The notes: generated from the letters alone by a model not told the origin. Positions 23,701 to 54,384 are shown, counted from the first letter of the stretch. The stretch is 64,000 nucleotides of DNA from Sminthopsis crassicaudata (GCF_048593235.1 NC_133617.1:497282958-497346957), one strand, 5' to 3'. Translations and numbers: made by a program.

Positions 23701-25459
23701 TAGTGAACTTTAAAAGTGAACTGATTAAAAATTGAGTAAGTAAAATCAAGAAAATAATACACACATTGTTTACAAAAAAAAAAAATAGACTTGAAAGAAC
23801 AAAAAACACCTAAACACTTAAACTGACCAATCTAAACCAGGGGAATACTTAAAAATATGTGCTTTCCTTCATTTGCAGAAGTAGGGGAATATGGGAATGA
23901 GTATTGCATACACTGTCAAACTTTATTTTATTCTTTAACAAAAGATAGCTCTGGTAGGTAGCAGAACAAGGAAAGAATAATCAGACATAAAGGTGATTTT
24001 TTTTAATTAAGATTTTTATAGATAAAGTAAGCCATTAACTCCTAAAGCATAAAAGAAAGTGGAAATTCCACTGTTTTCTATTCATAGATGCAGCCTTATA
24101 AGAAAATTGCTTGGACTCAGAATCTCAAGACTTGGGCTGAACTTCAAGCCACCCTTAGTTCTGGAATCATTTTAGTTATATCATTTAGTCTTATGACCTT
24201 TGCTTAAAGGTCTCCATTTTCATTATACCTTTAGACAGCTCACTTGTTTGCAAGTTTTCTGTAACATCAAAATTAAATTTGTTTCTTAGCAACTTCTACC
24301 CATTGTTTCTTATATTTTCCTCAGAGACCAGAACAAATTTACTTTTTCATCTTTATGGCAGTACCTTAACTCCGTAAGATAGTTACATTCTTTCCTAAAT
24401 CATTACTTCTTTTGGTAACCCTCCCAAATTTTGATCTTGATTTTCTTATCAGAATCATTTTTTTTTTAAATTAATTGCTTTAAATATTTCATTTATCCAC
24501 TTAAGGACATCTCAGGATATCTTAGATGATTTATTTTTTCATCTGTTTTGCTGCTGGAACTTGAATGCTCCATAGTTTTGTTGTTTTTTTTTTTGTTGTT
24601 GTTGTTGTTGTTTTTAATCATATGATCACTTTTCTTCTTTTTGCTTGGTTTGTTTTATTTTTATTTTCTTTTTTGGTACTTAGCCATTTTCTTCTCTGAT
24701 TTCTGGCATTTCAAGAGCCAGTAGAACAGCCAACATTAATATCACTGTTTTAACTTTTGCAAAATTCTTTGCAGATATCCTATTTTATCTTCACAATAAC
24801 CTTGATATTTAGCCTCTTATATAATCCTCACTTTACAGATGAGGAAGCCAATGCAAGCAGAAGTTAGGTGATTTATCCAGAGACATACAGCTATTAAGGG
24901 TCTTGAGACTGAATTTGAACTAATGTTTTACTAGTAGACTTTAGACAGGGCACCCTATTCATGCCACTACCTAGCAGCTTTTGCCTATTGAAAATATATA
25001 ATATATATGTAGCATATAGCTGACTTTATCTCTACCTCAATTAACATAAACACAGAAGATTTCTCTGTTAATTCAAAGTTGCAAACTAGCCACGAATGCA
25101 TTCTTAATCAGTTTGGGAGGAGGAATGAAGGATTTGAGTTATACATATGAAAACTCTATTTGTGATTGGCTGAAAGACTCTGACACACCACTGGGTCTGT
25201 TTGTATAATGTAGCTAATTAATCTTGGGGCAGTAAACTCAGAGCATCTTAAGGAGGCAGACCCTTGTACTATGTCAAGGGGAGGGTGAGGGAGAATGAGA
25301 CCAGAGGGATTATTACAATTTTCTCCCTTGACTGACCATGTCATTGGAAAGATTGTACCAGGAGGAAACAATGCATCTGAAAGGAAGCTCACATAGGAGG
25401 ATTTCACAAAGGTTTTGATCCTCAAAGTCCAAAAGAAAGCTATAGCTAAGGGGAACTTT

Positions 25460-25604
25460 TTTTTTTTTTTTCTGAGGCTGGGGTTAAGTGACTTGCCCAG
25501 GGTCACACAGCTAGGAAGTGTTAAGTGTCTGAGAAGAGATTTGAACTCTGGTCCTCCTTAATTCAAGGCTTGTGCTCTATCCACTGCACCACCTAGCTGC
25601 CCCC
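25460..25604 (-). mobile_element. Young WSINE1-like SINE with perfect 16-bp TSD
   Basis: TSD agctaaggggaacttt at 25444-25459 and 25605-25620. Confidence 0.92.
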
Positions 25605-26618
25605 AGCTAAGGGGAACTTTATGAGGATTTCACGTAGGGAAAAAAGGACTGAGTGTAATCTGCAGTTGTAAACTATCCCTTTGCCACATTTGTATCCTAC
25701 ATACAGTCTTATTAGCACCATTGTAATCTGCATTTGATTCTCATGAGTACCCAAGGTCTTTTTGGGGGAGAAGGTAGTTTTTGTACCAACTGTTCTTACT
25801 ATTATAAGAACTATCTTTTCTAAATTCTCTTCTGGCTGAGACAGTCTCAGTAATATCTATGCTCTTTCACTTCTATGGCTATTTCCTTGCTCTTTCAAAA
25901 TGCAGTGATATCAGTATTAAGAATAGTCTGCTCATCTATGATAACTTATGTATCAAACTTTATAGACATTTTGTACATCAAACACTGTTCCTTTCTACTC
26001 CTTAAGGAAACCCATTGTGGTTTGATGAACCAAAATTCATTTCGTGGGCCCTTTAATCTCAGTATTGGAAACCTTGGCTTCTATCAGCATCTTAATGATC
26101 TCTTGCTCAGACTGTTATGGGGACACTCCACGGCTTGACTCAGTACTTTTCGCTAACTGACCTCCATACTTGGGACATTCTCCATCTTCATTTCCACCTT
26201 CTGATTTCTTTGGCTTCCTTCAAGACTCAACACTCAGAAGCTTTTGTCCCACCCTCATCTCATACTGCTGATTCCTTGCCATTTACACTGTAGGTAATGT
26301 GGTGGTTTTCTTATTGTGGGCCCCATTATGTGAGCTCTTTGAGAGTAAGGATTATGTTTCAATCTTTGTTTTTATCCCCTGCATGTACTGCAGTGCCTCT
26401 CACACACAAAGCACTTAATATTTGTTGACTGACTATACCACAATAGTAAATAAAGATAGGCTAATTAAGCCTAATTGATAATCCATGTTGGTAGAAAATA
26501 ACATGGATTAGGGGACTCATGGCAGATAATATTAGAAAATCTGCAGAGTTTCCGTTAAAACCCTGAGGAAAGAAGTAGTCATTGTTCTCTGGGACTAATT
26601 TGGGAGTTAGCCCAGAGA

Positions 26619-45238: not shown

Positions 45239-45437
45239 ATTTTTTTTTTTTTTTTTTGCTGAGGCAATTGGGGTTAAGTGACTTGCCCAGAATCACATAG
45301 CCAAGAAGTGTTAAAGTGTCTGAGGCCAAAATTTGAACTCAGGTCCTCTTGACTTAAGGGTTGGTGAAGTTGGTAGTAGTTGGTTATTATTTGCTATAAT
45401 AGTAGTTGGCAGTAGTTACTATACCAACTAGCTGCCC
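45239..45437 (-). mobile_element. WSINE1-like SINE carrying a 51-nt internal insertion
   Basis: Standard body; head segment ctctatcc replaced by 45367-45417; imperfect TSD tgacagtga(ga)ttttt / tgacactgattttt. Confidence 0.85.
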
Positions 45438-49163: not shown

Positions 49164-49344
49164 TTTTTTAATTTTTATTTTATAATTACATTCATGTAAT
49201 TTATTTATTTTCCTGAGGCTGGGGTTAAGTGACTTACCCAGGGTCACATAGCTAGGAAGTGTTAAGTGTCTGAGACCAGATTTGAACTCGGGTCCTCCTG
49301 AATTCAAGGCTGGTGCTCTATCCACTGTGCCACCTAGCTGCCCC
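49164..49344 (-). mobile_element. Young WSINE1-like SINE with 13-bp TSD
   Basis: TSD tgttttatttctt at 49151-49163 and 49345-49357; AT-rich tail at 49164-49210. Confidence 0.9.
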
Positions 49345-50210
49345 TGTTTTATTTCTTAATAATGATCCCTCAGGCTCCAGGTAAAACCGTGGCTTAAGAA
49401 AGCAAGAGTGGAAAGAGGAAAAGACTGACATGGTGCGTGCTAAGTTCTAATTACATTATCAGTCAGTTATATGAATTCAGGAAGCAAAGATTTTTAGCTT
49501 CCACAATAAACTATTTAGAGTAATTACTTATATTTATAGTTATTAACTTCAGTTTTACTCAAATTAAACCAGTGACAGTCTTAAGATCTTTTTGAATTCT
49601 GACTTAAAACCCAGTTTGGTAACTACAGAATTATCACCTACAAATTTGATGAGGCTGCCCTTTAAATTTAATTTAAATCACTGATAAAAATATTAAACAG
49701 CAGGATACTTCAATGTGGAACTCCTTTCCAAGTTGACATTTATTCTTTTTTTGATTCAGTCATTCAACCAATTCCATGTTGATGAAATTGCCCACATCTC
49801 TCAAACTTTTCCATGAGAACACTTGACAAACTGAACAGACTGATTTATTTAATTGACTATTATTTATTTATTTTATTATATTTTATTTATTTTATTATAT
49901 TATTTAATTGACTAAAAACAACTATATAAATGATATTCCTCTTATTTACTAATATAATAACCCTGTCAAAAAAAAAAAAAAAAAAGGGGGGGGAGAATGA
50001 AATTATAATGTTGAAAATAAAGCTGTTGGATAACAAAAACCTAATGAGTGAAATTTTAAAAAAAGTTGGTGCCCACTAGCTGGAAAATAGTGTATTCAAG
50101 ACATCTCTTTCCTTTCAGAATTTAGTCACAAGATCACGCTTACTAAATTTCCTTGTTAGCCAACATTATTGATTTCTTTATTAATAAAGGGATCTGTGTA
50201 TTCTTCCTAG

Positions 50211-50420
50211 GTCCCAGTGATGTGCATGTTATTTGGGAGAAGAATGGAGAAAAAATAGATGTGTGTGTCTCTGTTCAGACTCACATACTGCCTGATGGCA
50301 AAGTATACTTATTTAGTTGGGTCAAAGACACACTAAGAGAAAGTTCGGAGTATTGTTGTTCTTTTTTCTCTAAGACAGGAAATAAGGCCTCCAAAGTATG
50401 GATCACCGTGGACAGACAAG
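50211..50420 (+). CDS. SEMA4D: SEMA4D alternative-isoform exon B (210 nt, phase 1-1): Ig strands C-G
   Basis: TTCTTCCTAG acceptor; (G)PSDVHVIWEKNGEKIDVCVSVQTHILPDGKVYLFSWVKDTLRESSEYCCSFFSKTGNKASKVWITVDRQ(E) matches recalled human GPADIRFVWEKNG...QTHALPDG...IRESAEYRCS; G|GTAAGT donor. Confidence 0.92.
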
Positions 50421-51633
50421 GTAAGTGGGCTGTCTTCTCATATGAAAAGCTGAAAACAATCAGGGTATATACTAACATTGGTTTTCTATAAAGTTCTAAT
50501 CTTTCTGTTAAAAGATAGCCAATTAATTTTGTTAAAAATGAATTCTTTCACATATTTATTACTTCAGGTAGAGGGCTAAGGTAAACAAAAACAATGGAAA
50601 AAAGGTCACTTCATTTGTTTCTTAAAAGAAAGTGCCTCATTTTAGGGAAAAAGAGCAGAGGTTTTTGGAAGTTGAATAGAATCACTGAGAGGAAATTTTC
50701 ACTAACTCTGGGATAACCATGGTAACCTAAATGATTTACATACTCATGGATAAATCAAAAGCTTCATTTTAGTGTGGAGCAATAAGCTCTTTTTTCACCA
50801 GGCTTTATCATAGATTATAAATATAACTACTTAATACAGGGTCACCCTAGGCAGAAGTGACATATTAGAGTAGAACTGGAATAAGAATTGAGACATGTGG
50901 GTTCAATTCCTAGCTTTTGTAATAACTCATTTCATGACTTTGGTAAATTTCCTCTCTAGAACTATTTTTTTATTTTATTTTATTAAAATGAGAGAATGTA
51001 CAAGATGATCTCTATTCCATTTCCAGCTTATACTTTGAGGTTGGATCCTGGTCTTTCTATCGCATTCCTCCTATGCACAGTCCGCCTCCCCCCTCCCCCC
51101 CAAAAAAAATTATTGTTACATATAGCCAGAGCCTTTATCCTTTGCCTTGGGCTTCCTACTCAATTGCTATCTCCCAGTCAAGACTGCTTTTGCAGAATAG
51201 CAACTACTCTTCTGGACCTTTCTGGGGAAGAAGTGTGGCACAATTGATTTAGAATTAAAGACCCTCAGCTCAAATCCAAGTTCTTCACATTGGACAAGTC
51301 ATTTAATGTCTCTCTAGATATCTCACATTTGTAAAATGAAAGGGCTGCCCCAGAGATGCTAGGATCCTTTTCTATTACCCACATTATGATTTTTTATGAG
51401 GGCAGATAGAAAGGACTATAACAGAAGAAAAGGAAATAAATAAAACTTTTATGATAATTGTGGTATTCAATTTCTTGCTTTTTTACTTGGAGTTCTCTCC
51501 CTATGAAGATTTCTATGGAAAATTATTTGTTAAGGCAACATACTAGTCATTATTAAAAAAGGACATTACATACACATTAACAATCCTGAATCCCCAATTT
51601 GGTTCACTGGTTTTTAGAAAGCATCTGTATTAC

Positions 51634-52085
51634 TGTAAGGGGCCTAAGATCATCAGGCAAGCGCAATTGAGATGTAAGTGGACCAGATGTGCTTAAGAGT
51701 TGAGTACTTAGGGACTTCCTTAGTGGATGGGACCTCCACCCATGGCAGAAACCCAGATCTCACTCTGAAGTCTCTGTCAAATTTGGGATGTAACCTTCAT
51801 CATTGATTGGCTTGTGTCTGTGACCTCATTGACCCTATTTAAGCTCTGGACAGGAAGAACTCTTCCCTTTTCTCTTCTCTCTTACCACCTGGAGACTGGA
51901 CTGGGAGGTCATAGAATAAAGTCTAAGCTTGTTCATCTAAACTCTCAGGTGCTCTGTTGTGCACTTAAAACTACTTCCATATGAGATAGTAGCCAGAGGA
52001 TTCTGAGGACCTCAAAATAGAGGTGAGATTGATATTATATTTGACAGTTTTTCTCTGATAGGCCTAGGAATAAGAAACCCTAACA
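51634..52085 (+). mobile_element. ERV LTR (452 bp, TG...CA), betaretrovirus-like
   Basis: Starts TGTAAGG, ends CCCTAACA; TATTTAA at 51836; AATAAA at 51915; immediately followed by a PBS. Confidence 0.9.
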
Positions 52086-52087
52086 TA

Positions 52088-52105
52088 TGGCGCCAGACGT
52101 GAGGC
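52088..52105 (+). promoter_or_regulatory. Retroviral primer-binding site, tRNA-Lys1,2-like
   Basis: TGGCGCCAGACGTGAGGC is a 15/18 match to TGGCGCCCAACGTGGGGC, 2 nt after the LTR end. Confidence 0.8.
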
Positions 52106-52208
52106 ACAATATTTATAATGCTAAGCTTTGATTATTAATTATTACAATTAATATCCAAAAAGGCATACAAGTTCCTCATTCGGAAGAGAAGGTAGAGAGA
52201 GATACACT

Positions 52209-52385
52209 ATGGGTCAATTTGTGACTAGACCCGAGAGTAGAGTAGTAAAAGAAGAGCAAACTTATGAATTACAAATCACAATGGGTGATTCTTTAACAGA
52301 AAACACACCCCCAGAAAAAGAAATGCAGGAAGAGTGCTCCCCAGTGCCAAAAGTATTTATCCTTCATTAGAAGGTTTATCATGAT
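52209..52385 (+). pseudogene. Decayed gag N-terminus
   Basis: ATG GGT CAA (MGQ, myristoylation-type start) after the leader; a shifted frame gives SAKSIYPSL, similar to the retroviral LYPSL motif. Confidence 0.45.
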
Positions 52386-52491
52386 ATGTGCCTCCAGGTG
52401 ATCAAGGTAATAAAGAAAACCACCTTCCCCATCCCTTAAGTACAGCTCAAATAGAGAGAATGGGTGAAGGGATTAAGCAAATAGAACAAAA

Positions 52492-52677
52492 GATGAAAGT
52501 TACATCCTGAACTTGATAGAGATTTCAGAGCAAGATCTGGGTTCCCACCATGGGTGGAGGCCCCACCCATGAAGGAATTCCTTAAGTACTCAACTCTAAG
52601 CACATCTGGGGATGCTAAAAACCATTGGTCTATTTACATCTCAATTGCACTTGCCTGACCTTTTTAGGACCCTTACA
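52492..52677 (-). mobile_element. Inverted copy of the U3 5' portion of the same LTR
   Basis: Reverse complement aligns to 51634-51801 at about 85% identity by hand count (25 mismatches, one 19-nt and one 1-nt indel); ends ...CCTTACA followed by TATTAC. Confidence 0.9.
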
Positions 52678-53366
52678 TATTACCATGTGCCAGGATGGAG
52701 AGACATTTTGATGGCTACAAAACAAATCATAAACACTTGTCTCAGGGCCTTTATTTGTCCATTAGTTTACTTATACTGTTTTCTATAACTAAAGTGTTTA
52801 ATGTTCTTAAAATGTTATGTACTGAATCCCCATGAGCATCAATACAAAGAAATAATGTAGTTAAAATTTTATGATAGATTTTTAGGGGAGCTAATAAAAT
52901 ATATTAAACAAAGTAAAGCTTCTAAGCTTCTTTAAATTGTCTGAACTCTAGTTCACATTAAATCTGTGTTCCCAAACTCATACTCTAGATTTCAATCACA
53001 AACATTAAAGACAGTTCAAGTAAAAAGAAATCTCAGCACGAGCAAGCCCATCCTAATAATCATCCAATATTTCTTGGATTTTTTTTTTTCATGCTTAGAA
53101 AGAATAAATTAACCACCATCTTGCACAAAAGTAAAAGTTGTAAAAAAGATGTGAAGACACATTGACAGGAAGGAAGAGAGTGTACTGGCATCAACCTTAA
53201 GATACCCCAGAATTTAATTCAATACCTAACTACCTATCGCTACCCTTTGATGTTTTTGAAGACATCCTTTCCTAAATTGAGGTTGGCAGCTTAACCAATA
53301 TATTACACAGCCATACCTTGGATCATAGATTTCTTTTCATCTTGTGGAACTGTTTGTATTTTTCAG

Positions 53367-53464
53367 AGGCCACTCATCAAGAAAGCTGGACTAGAGAGCT
53401 CAATAATTGGAAGACTGTGGTTAATGAGCATGACCAAATGATGCAGAATTGGAAAAAAGCATGG
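53367..53464 (+). CDS. SEMA4D: SEMA4D alternative-isoform exon C (98 nt, phase 1-0)
   Basis: TTTTTCAG acceptor; (E)ATHQESWTRELNNWKTVVNEHDQMMQNWKKAW matches recalled human EVTHQERWTRELSAWRAVAGEHDRMMQSWRKAW; TGG|GTAGGA donor. Confidence 0.9.
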
Positions 53465-54384
53465 GTAGGAGGATCTTTGGATCATTTGTACAGTATCACT
53501 TTGAAGCCTATAGGACAGCAAGAACCTAACACAGTTCTCTGTTTTTCCCCCCATATTCTCAGCTATCATTTAGTGACATCAAAGCAACAGTTTCTTTGTT
53601 CTGATATGCAAAGTCTTTAGTAGAACCCCCATTTATCCAGGATGAGAAATGTCCCAGGAGTTTAGAATGACTATACACTCATATTTCTAAAGAGATTATG
53701 GAAATTCTAATTAGGTAGCTAAAAGAACAATACCTTTGGGGTTGGGACAGGCAATTCAACATTCTTTATACATGTCGACAACTCTTCTTTAAGGGCATGT
53801 GTTTATTTTGTGATGTTAAGTTCCACAAAGTGACGTTTCCTCACATGTTAAATTAAGAGAGTTAGTCTAATTAACCTCAAAATGTCCCTTTTGGAGCTAA
53901 GACTTCAAAAATCCCATGATTCAAAGCTGGTAGCTGGAAAAACAAATGGAATGCAATTTTCAAACCCTATCCATGCACAAATACCTTGTCCCCTACTCCA
54001 CTTAAAGCCACATCAAAGCTGGCAAAAAAAAAAAAAATAATAATAATTTCAACTGGCAAACATAAAACAATACTTTCAGGTCTGGAGGGAGTTCATCTTC
54101 AAAAGTAATAATAATGAGAAAGGAAGTATCCTACCTTTTCCAGAGGTCCATATTTCTGGCATAACCAACAATGACTTTCATAAAGAGTAGATGCCATTAA
54201 TGTGATTCCTATTAGCAAAAACTAATAAAAATCTTTTTCTTTGTATTAATTTCTATTTTTATGTTCTGAGAAACAACCAGATAGATACTAAACAGCCCTA
54301 AATCTTATTAAAATATCAATGTCTTTACAAGAGAGCGGCTTGAGTACAGATTCAAAAGGAAAATTAAGCCTGATTTTCTTTCAG

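Follow-up and report, generated by a model that had tools for sequence, protein, structure and literature searches.

An endogenous-retrovirus-like insert with two inverted U3 ends inside one 6-bp target-site duplication in a SEMA4D intron

Genomic context and structure of the insert

The DNA analysed here (the window, a single stretch of 64,000 nucleotides) holds SEMA4D, which we named from protein matches: two proteins match at 94–96 per cent, and those of named placental mammals at 71 per cent or less, so that the host is likely a marsupial. SEMA4D exons lie at 16897–17889, 19902–20123, 50210–50419 and 53366–53470; they include the last exon of the membrane form and, 30 kb onward, exons for an alternative long 3′ end. 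In the exon at 53366, the match to the long-isoform protein falls off after approximately 35 codons. Alignment of the protein to the window with tblastn places an intron of the long isoform at 50420–53365 (plus strand), between an exon that ends at 50419 and one that starts near 53366, and this intron contains the insert described below. Just upstream of the latter exon, 108 other letters replace 52 at 53147–53200 in organism B, one of the relatives introduced below. Five SINE-like repeat copies in the window (5029–5231, 16022–16214, 25454–25605, 45240–45366 and 49168–49357), which are 76–92 per cent alike, served only as controls.

The insert is 1,044 bp long, resembles an endogenous retrovirus (ERV), and runs from a TG at 51634 to a CA at 52677. 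Its parts are, in order, a long terminal repeat (LTR) of 452 bp, a primer-binding site, approximately 390 bp of gag-like sequence, and an inverted copy of the first 186 bp of the LTR. One 6-bp direct repeat encloses the whole, and its left copy (51628–51633, plus strand) and right copy (52678–52683, plus strand) match at 6/6 positions, for which the chance probability at the local base composition is about 4e-4. The initial annotation had placed the duplication, the LTR and the U3 ends at coordinates that both sequence and alignment confirm.

The complete LTR (51634–52085, plus strand), which lies in sense orientation relative to SEMA4D, starts with TG, ends with CA, and carries 8-bp terminal inverted repeats with 7/8 letters matching; in alignments it has many related contigs in all three organisms sampled (A, B and C; see below). 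A motif scan located a TATA-like box at 51836 and an AATAAA at 51915 (51836–51920, plus strand), by which the borders of U3, R and U5 are likely set. According to the same scan, the inverted arm contains only sequence from upstream of the TATA-like box, and the segment copied into it would fall wholly in U3. A short hairpin in U3 pairs perfectly in the right arm (52549–52571; 9-bp stem, 5-nt loop) and imperfectly in the left arm (51722–51746). In the two runs of organism A, 12 and 15 LTR contigs depart from the alignment at 52074, and one contig that departs there rejoins after 34 extra letters, from which it follows that the U5 of this LTR is shorter than in many members of the family.

Two spacer bases separate the LTR end at 52085 from a Lys-like primer-binding site (52088–52105, plus strand), presumably of the tRNA-Lys1,2 type, in which both CpGs are kept. 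Compared by eye with the site of the marsupial betaretrovirus-like ERV MEBrv 1 in the supplement of PMC11334065, 15/18 of its letters are the same. The untranslated leader (52106–52208, plus strand) is taken as the stretch that separates the primer-binding site from the first ATG. It is followed by a broken gag-like start (52209–52495, plus strand), in which the ATG-led frame from 52209 meets a stop near 52368–52370 and an overlapping second frame stops at 52382. The region has multi-copy relatives in organisms A and B that are 11–18 per cent diverged. Of the gag start claimed in the initial annotation, a gag-like frame identified by position stands, and Pfam and protein searches returned no true relative of it: two pieces of approximately 50 amino acids each, short and broken, matched no Pfam family, with no matrix domain recognised, and gave 0 hits among 3 and 1 candidates in protein searches. 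Two matches among representative proteins were rejected as unrelated cysteine-rich repeat proteins. It is therefore by position only that we infer a gag identity for 52209–52495. Although the gag-like start resembles no protein searched, it occurs in multiple copies in three species and may belong to an undescribed or non-autonomous ERV family.

The inverted U3 start (52492–52677, minus strand; 186 bp), defined by alignment and, in a second individual, by a contig that extends from 52463 into the right flank, has an intact CA end. It shares 4 nt (52492–52495, no strand assigned) with the internal region, and this overlap is the likely switch point. The right tip of the insert is a U3 end and not a U5 end: the match to U3 extends over 186 nt, and terminal position 4, at which U3 and U5 differ, carries the U3 letter. 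In the canonical layout, direct LTRs leave U3 as the left tip and U5 as the right; here the right tip is an inverted U3 instead. The insert lacks both a second R region and a polypurine tract on the strand where one would be needed; its sole purine run of at least 12 letters is in the minus strand of the left LTR. Because of the missing R region and polypurine tract, the insert is predicted to be immobile and unable to copy itself.

Signals of the AATAAA/ATTAAA type occur inside the insert in SEMA4D sense at 51915 and 52409, and these two could bring about an early end of the long SEMA4D isoform. The two arms are predicted to pair in SEMA4D pre-mRNA over 153 positions (z of −15.9 against 20 shuffles). 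The insert is probably neutral for the host.

The empty site and the integration event

Contigs of public reads from 4 of the 15 runs listed were aligned to positions 50900–53400 at 80 per cent likeness. The runs represent two individuals of the host species, organism A, from different studies (X1 and X2), and one run each of the relatives B and C. In organism B, one contig of 14,203 nt covers the two flanks in their proper order and passes directly from 51630 to 52681, thereby skipping 1,050 letters, that is, the 1,044 of the insert plus 6, with nothing between. Only 3 letters at this joint fit both sides, and one target letter may differ in B. The empty-site joint is present in this 1/4 runs and absent from the other three, among which organism C has low depth and lacks unique flank cover and is thus uninformative on this site. 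Since precisely 1,050 bp are skipped, the duplication is genuine and both flanks are undamaged, and the empty site delimits the insert unusually well. The claim of the initial annotation that two inverted U3 ends lie within one 6-bp duplication is borne out by this exact skip.

The filled site is seen in the host species. The join from the left flank to the LTR is present in 2/2 runs of organism A, and in the second individual one contig leads from 52463 across the junction and through the inverted arm into the right flank, with 7 differences from the window, to which it is unrelated by sample and study. To the left of the overlap this contig has 29 letters (33 with the overlap), which places it at the 31-letter limit of the method. 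The corresponding arm contig of X1 begins at 52499, short of the junction, and none of the 32 longest pieces listed spans the whole insert. These last three observations are what an assembly artefact, a collapse between repeats, would have in its favour, but the left join, the independent junction contig and the exactly fitting empty site make it very improbable. Joints on 'opposite strands' in the contig alignment are explained by LTR contigs that fit either arm and were left out of account.

Other routes to two inverted ends were rejected. Insertions at two nearby but different sites conflict with flanks that are complete, with none gained or lost; an inversion between two LTRs would also invert the duplication; and an autointegration circle could carry two outward U3 ends but, on reasoning, would offer integrase no free ends. 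The TG and CA tips abut a short direct duplication of which the empty site has one copy, as in insertions made by integrase. A duplication of fixed short length is described as the mark of coordinated joining, with uncoordinated joining giving other lengths (PMC2857682), and second ends made by the host are reported to be often truncated and accompanied by flank rearrangements (PMC5041404). Very probably, then, one integrase event inserted a DNA with two U3 ends. The single insertion proposed in the initial annotation is upheld by the clean empty site in a relative and by the junction in a second individual.

Copy number

The LTR belongs to an abundant family: in the two runs of organism A, 15 and 14 contigs reach the arm tip at 52677 and then continue into other flanks. 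Relatives of the internal region were found in organisms A, B and C. The depth of the arm and junction contigs is close to that of the flanks (14.9 versus 15.3–15.4 in X1; 61.5 versus 49.3 and 61.2 in X2), and because of this resemblance the junction is taken to be single-copy, a copy number judged without summed depth. No diverged copy that crosses the junction occurs among the 32 longest pieces listed, beyond which lie 2,373 further pieces. The window contains no other copy of the insert, Rfam gave 0 matches, and scans for LTR motifs in metagenome and viral contigs had 0 hits; six weak candidate loci have no DNA similarity to the insert and were rejected.

Relatives of the internal region also locate the junction. 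Five of the internal pieces listed, from organisms B and C, cease to match at 52494–52495, and four of them continue for 82–178 unlike letters. The U3 match starts at 52492, so that approximately 4 nt are common to both sides; the chance of at least 4 nt is 0.016–0.03. The other internal pieces that reach the junction are two in organism A that end at 52492 (one of them at its contig end) and one in organism C that ends at 52476.

The initial annotation had offered as a third option a mobile derivative with LTR-derived terminal inverted repeats, and a small family of this kind would account for a layout like that of a non-autonomous DNA transposon, with the 2,373 further pieces as a place for its copies. 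Against it stand the flank-like depth, the lack of a diverged junction-crossing copy among the 32 longest pieces listed, the missing second R region and purine tract on the needed strand, and arms that are far from identical, and we regard such a family as very improbable. The pattern of a miniature inverted-repeat transposable element (MITE), with many copies that share ends and interior at different sites, does not appear among these 32 pieces. Most likely, the insert is a dead one-off.

Divergence of the two arms

Over 170 alignment columns the arms differ by 26 mismatches (15.3 per cent), one 19-nt gap and one 1-nt gap (blastn E-value of 1e-36), in agreement with the divergence of approximately 15 per cent and the 19-nt indel in the initial annotation; within the unambiguous arm (52492–52677) the mismatches number 25/167 (15 per cent). 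By comparison, the flanks of organisms A and B differ at 88 of 1,263 aligned sites (7.0 per cent), and the difference between arm and flank divergence over all sites has a P-value of 0.0003–0.001. Seven of the arm mismatches are of the CpG type; without them the count is 18/160 and the P-value 0.03–0.06. The longest paralogous contigs in organism A are 9–15 per cent away from this copy, a range biased toward diverged copies by the choice of long contigs.

How much divergence could have accumulated in place depends on the age of the insertion. Both arms carry a C at 51739/52554, where organisms B (10 contigs) and C (12 contigs) have another letter in all of their depth; in organism A, approximately 96 per cent of the depth shares the C of the arms and about 4 per cent has another letter. 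Since organism B has an empty site and both arms carry the letter typical of A, the insertion likely postdates the split of A and B. In that case, arms that were identical at insertion should differ by approximately 7 per cent or less.

The CpG sites of the arms also bear on their initial identity. There are three TG/CA sites, one CG/TG site and no CG/CG site, a pattern with a probability of 0.0004–0.035 if the arms were identical at insertion and decay was 0.3–0.6; 6- to 20-fold CpG rates at 3.5 per cent per lineage give a decay range of 0.25–0.61. The 19-nt segment (52610–52628) is present in the right arm and absent from the left LTR. In organism C, LTR contigs without it and with it both occur, and since both forms exist as LTRs there, the indel is likely older than the insertion.

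Among transitions outside CpG, read on the viral strand, 12 are A/G and 1 is C/T (P-value of 0.004), or 9:1 without clustered sites (P-value of 0.02), in a test that is post hoc and in which 5/6 control repeat pairs lean toward A/G or are near even and one stands at 27:8. Such a skew is the pattern expected from viral replication and may have arisen in that way. Two different donor viruses are moderately favoured, as roughly twice as probable as a single donor; identical arms that decayed fast are less probable.

Relation to known retroelements

A Lys-type primer-binding site and a 6-bp duplication typify class II ERVs, and the insert has both; it contains no pol. With class II (betaretrovirus-like, ERVK) proviruses it shares a TG...CA LTR of approximately 450 bp, a Lys-like site 2 nt after the LTR, a 6-bp duplication, and an abundant LTR family; it differs from them in its second end, which is an inverted partial U3 instead of a direct LTR that ends in U5. 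The Lys-type assignment draws on the by-eye likeness to the MEBrv 1 site mentioned above, as given in the supplement to PMC11334065 (15/18). Compared by eye with the eight representatives of MEBrv 1–5 and MEGrv 1–3 in that source, two of which have no annotated LTR, the LTR matches the first 480–500 nt of none (8/8), and the gag-like frame matches none of three Gag starts. On this by-eye comparison with the sequences in the source, the insert is assignable to none of its eight clades (PMC11334065).

Aberrant proviruses of HIV and avian sarcoma-leukosis virus (ASLV) with one host-made end (PMC5041404) and HIV proviruses whose LTRs are asymmetric or that contain inversions (PMC9278108, PMC12657518) provide partial parallels. 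They share with the origin that we propose below a viral 3′ end that primes on another viral strand via a short match, and strand-transfer errors between co-packaged genomes. However, these proviruses either have one non-canonical end and flank rearrangements or keep the U3...U5 polarity, whereas both ends of the insert are canonical U3 ends, its duplication is normal, and it is inherited through the germ line. Integration in vitro provides the same one-step joining of two U3-type or two U5-type ends (PMC6705210, PMC5329712), but with short oligonucleotides in the test tube, whereas the insert is a natural insertion. DIRS elements (PMC7192593, PMC3950715) share inverted terminal repeats with the insert, but they rely on a tyrosine recombinase and are normally built with this inverted arrangement, whereas the insert is a one-off with a duplication of the integrase type; none of the 14 open reading frames of at least 100 amino acids in the window encodes a tyrosine recombinase. 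The insert would be best classified as an aberrant class II-like ERV provirus, and neither as a canonical provirus nor as an element of the MITE or DIRS kind. Among the titles and abstract openings listed, with older subscription virology outside this scope, we found no endogenous provirus with two U3 ends in one duplication.

How the two U3 ends may have been joined

The final sequence by itself cannot separate a template switch, a fold-back and the pairing of two DNAs. Our leading explanation, which we hold tentatively and at a little short of an even chance, is that a jump during reverse transcription joined two different co-packaged genomes and integrase then inserted the product. One particle would have contained two RNAs from the same family that differed in their LTR variants. 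Plus-strand synthesis would have copied U3-R-U5 and the primer-binding site and then continued for approximately 390 nt into the internal region, where the growing plus strand would have switched onto the plus-strand U3 DNA of the second co-packaged genome. The resulting branched DNA would have had two duplex U3 ends, which integrase would have joined to the target 6 bp apart, and host repair would have trimmed the two flaps. The switch is supported by the 4-nt overlap and by the location of both breakpoints where early plus-strand DNAs lie. The overlap itself would be equally compatible with host end-joining, and the internal contig of organism A that stops at 52492, and not at 52495, counts against a switch edge at 52495.

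The individual steps have precedents in the sources cited. Retroviral RNAs that diverge from one another can be packaged together (PMC5086612). Strong-stop transfer between co-packaged genomes was proposed for 26/88 HIV proviruses with asymmetric LTRs, and 2 HIV proviruses with inversions were reported (PMC9278108); aberrant plus-strand transfers have also been described (PMC12657518). In vitro, integrase can join two like ends in a concerted reaction, although the integrases of HIV-1, SIV and HTLV-1 prefer U5 over U3 ends, which counts against a joining of two U3 ends (PMC6705210, PMC5329712). An insertion with short U3-type ends has been reported, but its junctions are mostly deleted and we do not count it as support (PMC7240061). 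The initial annotation had kept apart a concerted integration of U3 ends from two viral DNAs, to which it credited the arm divergence, and a fold-back template switch. The jump between co-packaged genomes takes its template switch from the latter and its second donor from the former, and neither proposal alone is preferred.

The nearest rival, which we consider somewhat unlikely, is a fold-back within a single genome, in which the plus strand copies its own U3, identical arms are inserted, and fast CpG decay, or gene conversion of one arm from another LTR, later separates them. A single molecule suffices for it, we would expect an intramolecular fold-back to be easier than a jump between molecules, and the U3 of the left LTR itself would give the same 4-nt overlap. 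The non-CpG excess is weak (P-value of 0.03–0.06), and paralogues in organism A are 9–15 per cent away. Inverted arms inside a direct repeat can promote precise loss, and such a loss could mean that the site in organism B became empty secondarily and that the insertion is older; the A-typical letter in both arms speaks against an age before the split. Also against a fold-back are the all-site excess (P-value of about 0.001), a CpG pattern of low probability, given that the primer-binding site has kept both of its CpGs, the existence of the two 19-nt indel forms as separate LTRs in organism C, and mismatches all along the arm, which conversion would need to span entirely.

Two separate viral DNAs, either with their U3 ends paired in one intasome or as a tail-to-tail dimer, followed by repair at the 4-nt microhomology, would explain two donors and a canonical duplication equally well, and separate like ends do support concerted integration in vitro. 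In long inverted repeats the centre is lost, which would leave short arms. However, several kilobases would have to be removed on both sides, with stops within the first 860 nt of one DNA and the first 186 nt of the other that coincide with the usual ends of early plus-strand DNAs, and a chromosome break would be opened in a germ cell. Moreover, the two integrated ends in cells are generally attributed to one DNA. We judge this origin unlikely.

Changes after an ordinary integration, through either a second provirus in opposite orientation at precisely these six bases, on the same or the other allele, and a later deletion that fuses the two, or a break in a normal provirus repaired from a distant LTR, would provide two donors without an unusual viral DNA. 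The LTR family is abundant, and the U3 and U5 tips match at 7/8 letters. Yet the flanks equal the empty site with nothing gained or lost, so that only exact reuse of the site works, and the U3 letter at position 4 of the right tip leaves room for no more than 3 nt of a U5 end; such changes are improbable. A jump between two co-packaged genomes remains the explanation that we prefer.

Implications

The pairing of U3 with U5 ends and the origin of both from one DNA are normally studied in vitro. As a natural insertion, the locus indicates that a DNA bearing U3 at both ends can likely be inserted in vivo by a retroviral integrase, with a duplication of the normal kind. Should the arms derive from two genomes, it records either that both co-packaged RNAs were copied in one particle or that two DNAs shared an intasome. 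The layout can be counted in genomes, in which the ratio of U3/U3 to U5/U5 insertions, arm lengths and arm divergence would separate the mechanisms. It is an unlikely prospect, though one with consequences, that insertions with two like ends form an overlooked recurrent class and that this locus is a germ-line fossil of two U3 ends in one intasome; if they do recur, LTR finders would miss them, since such tools seek direct repeats. The insert informs on the misbehaviour of reverse transcriptase and integrase in the germ line.
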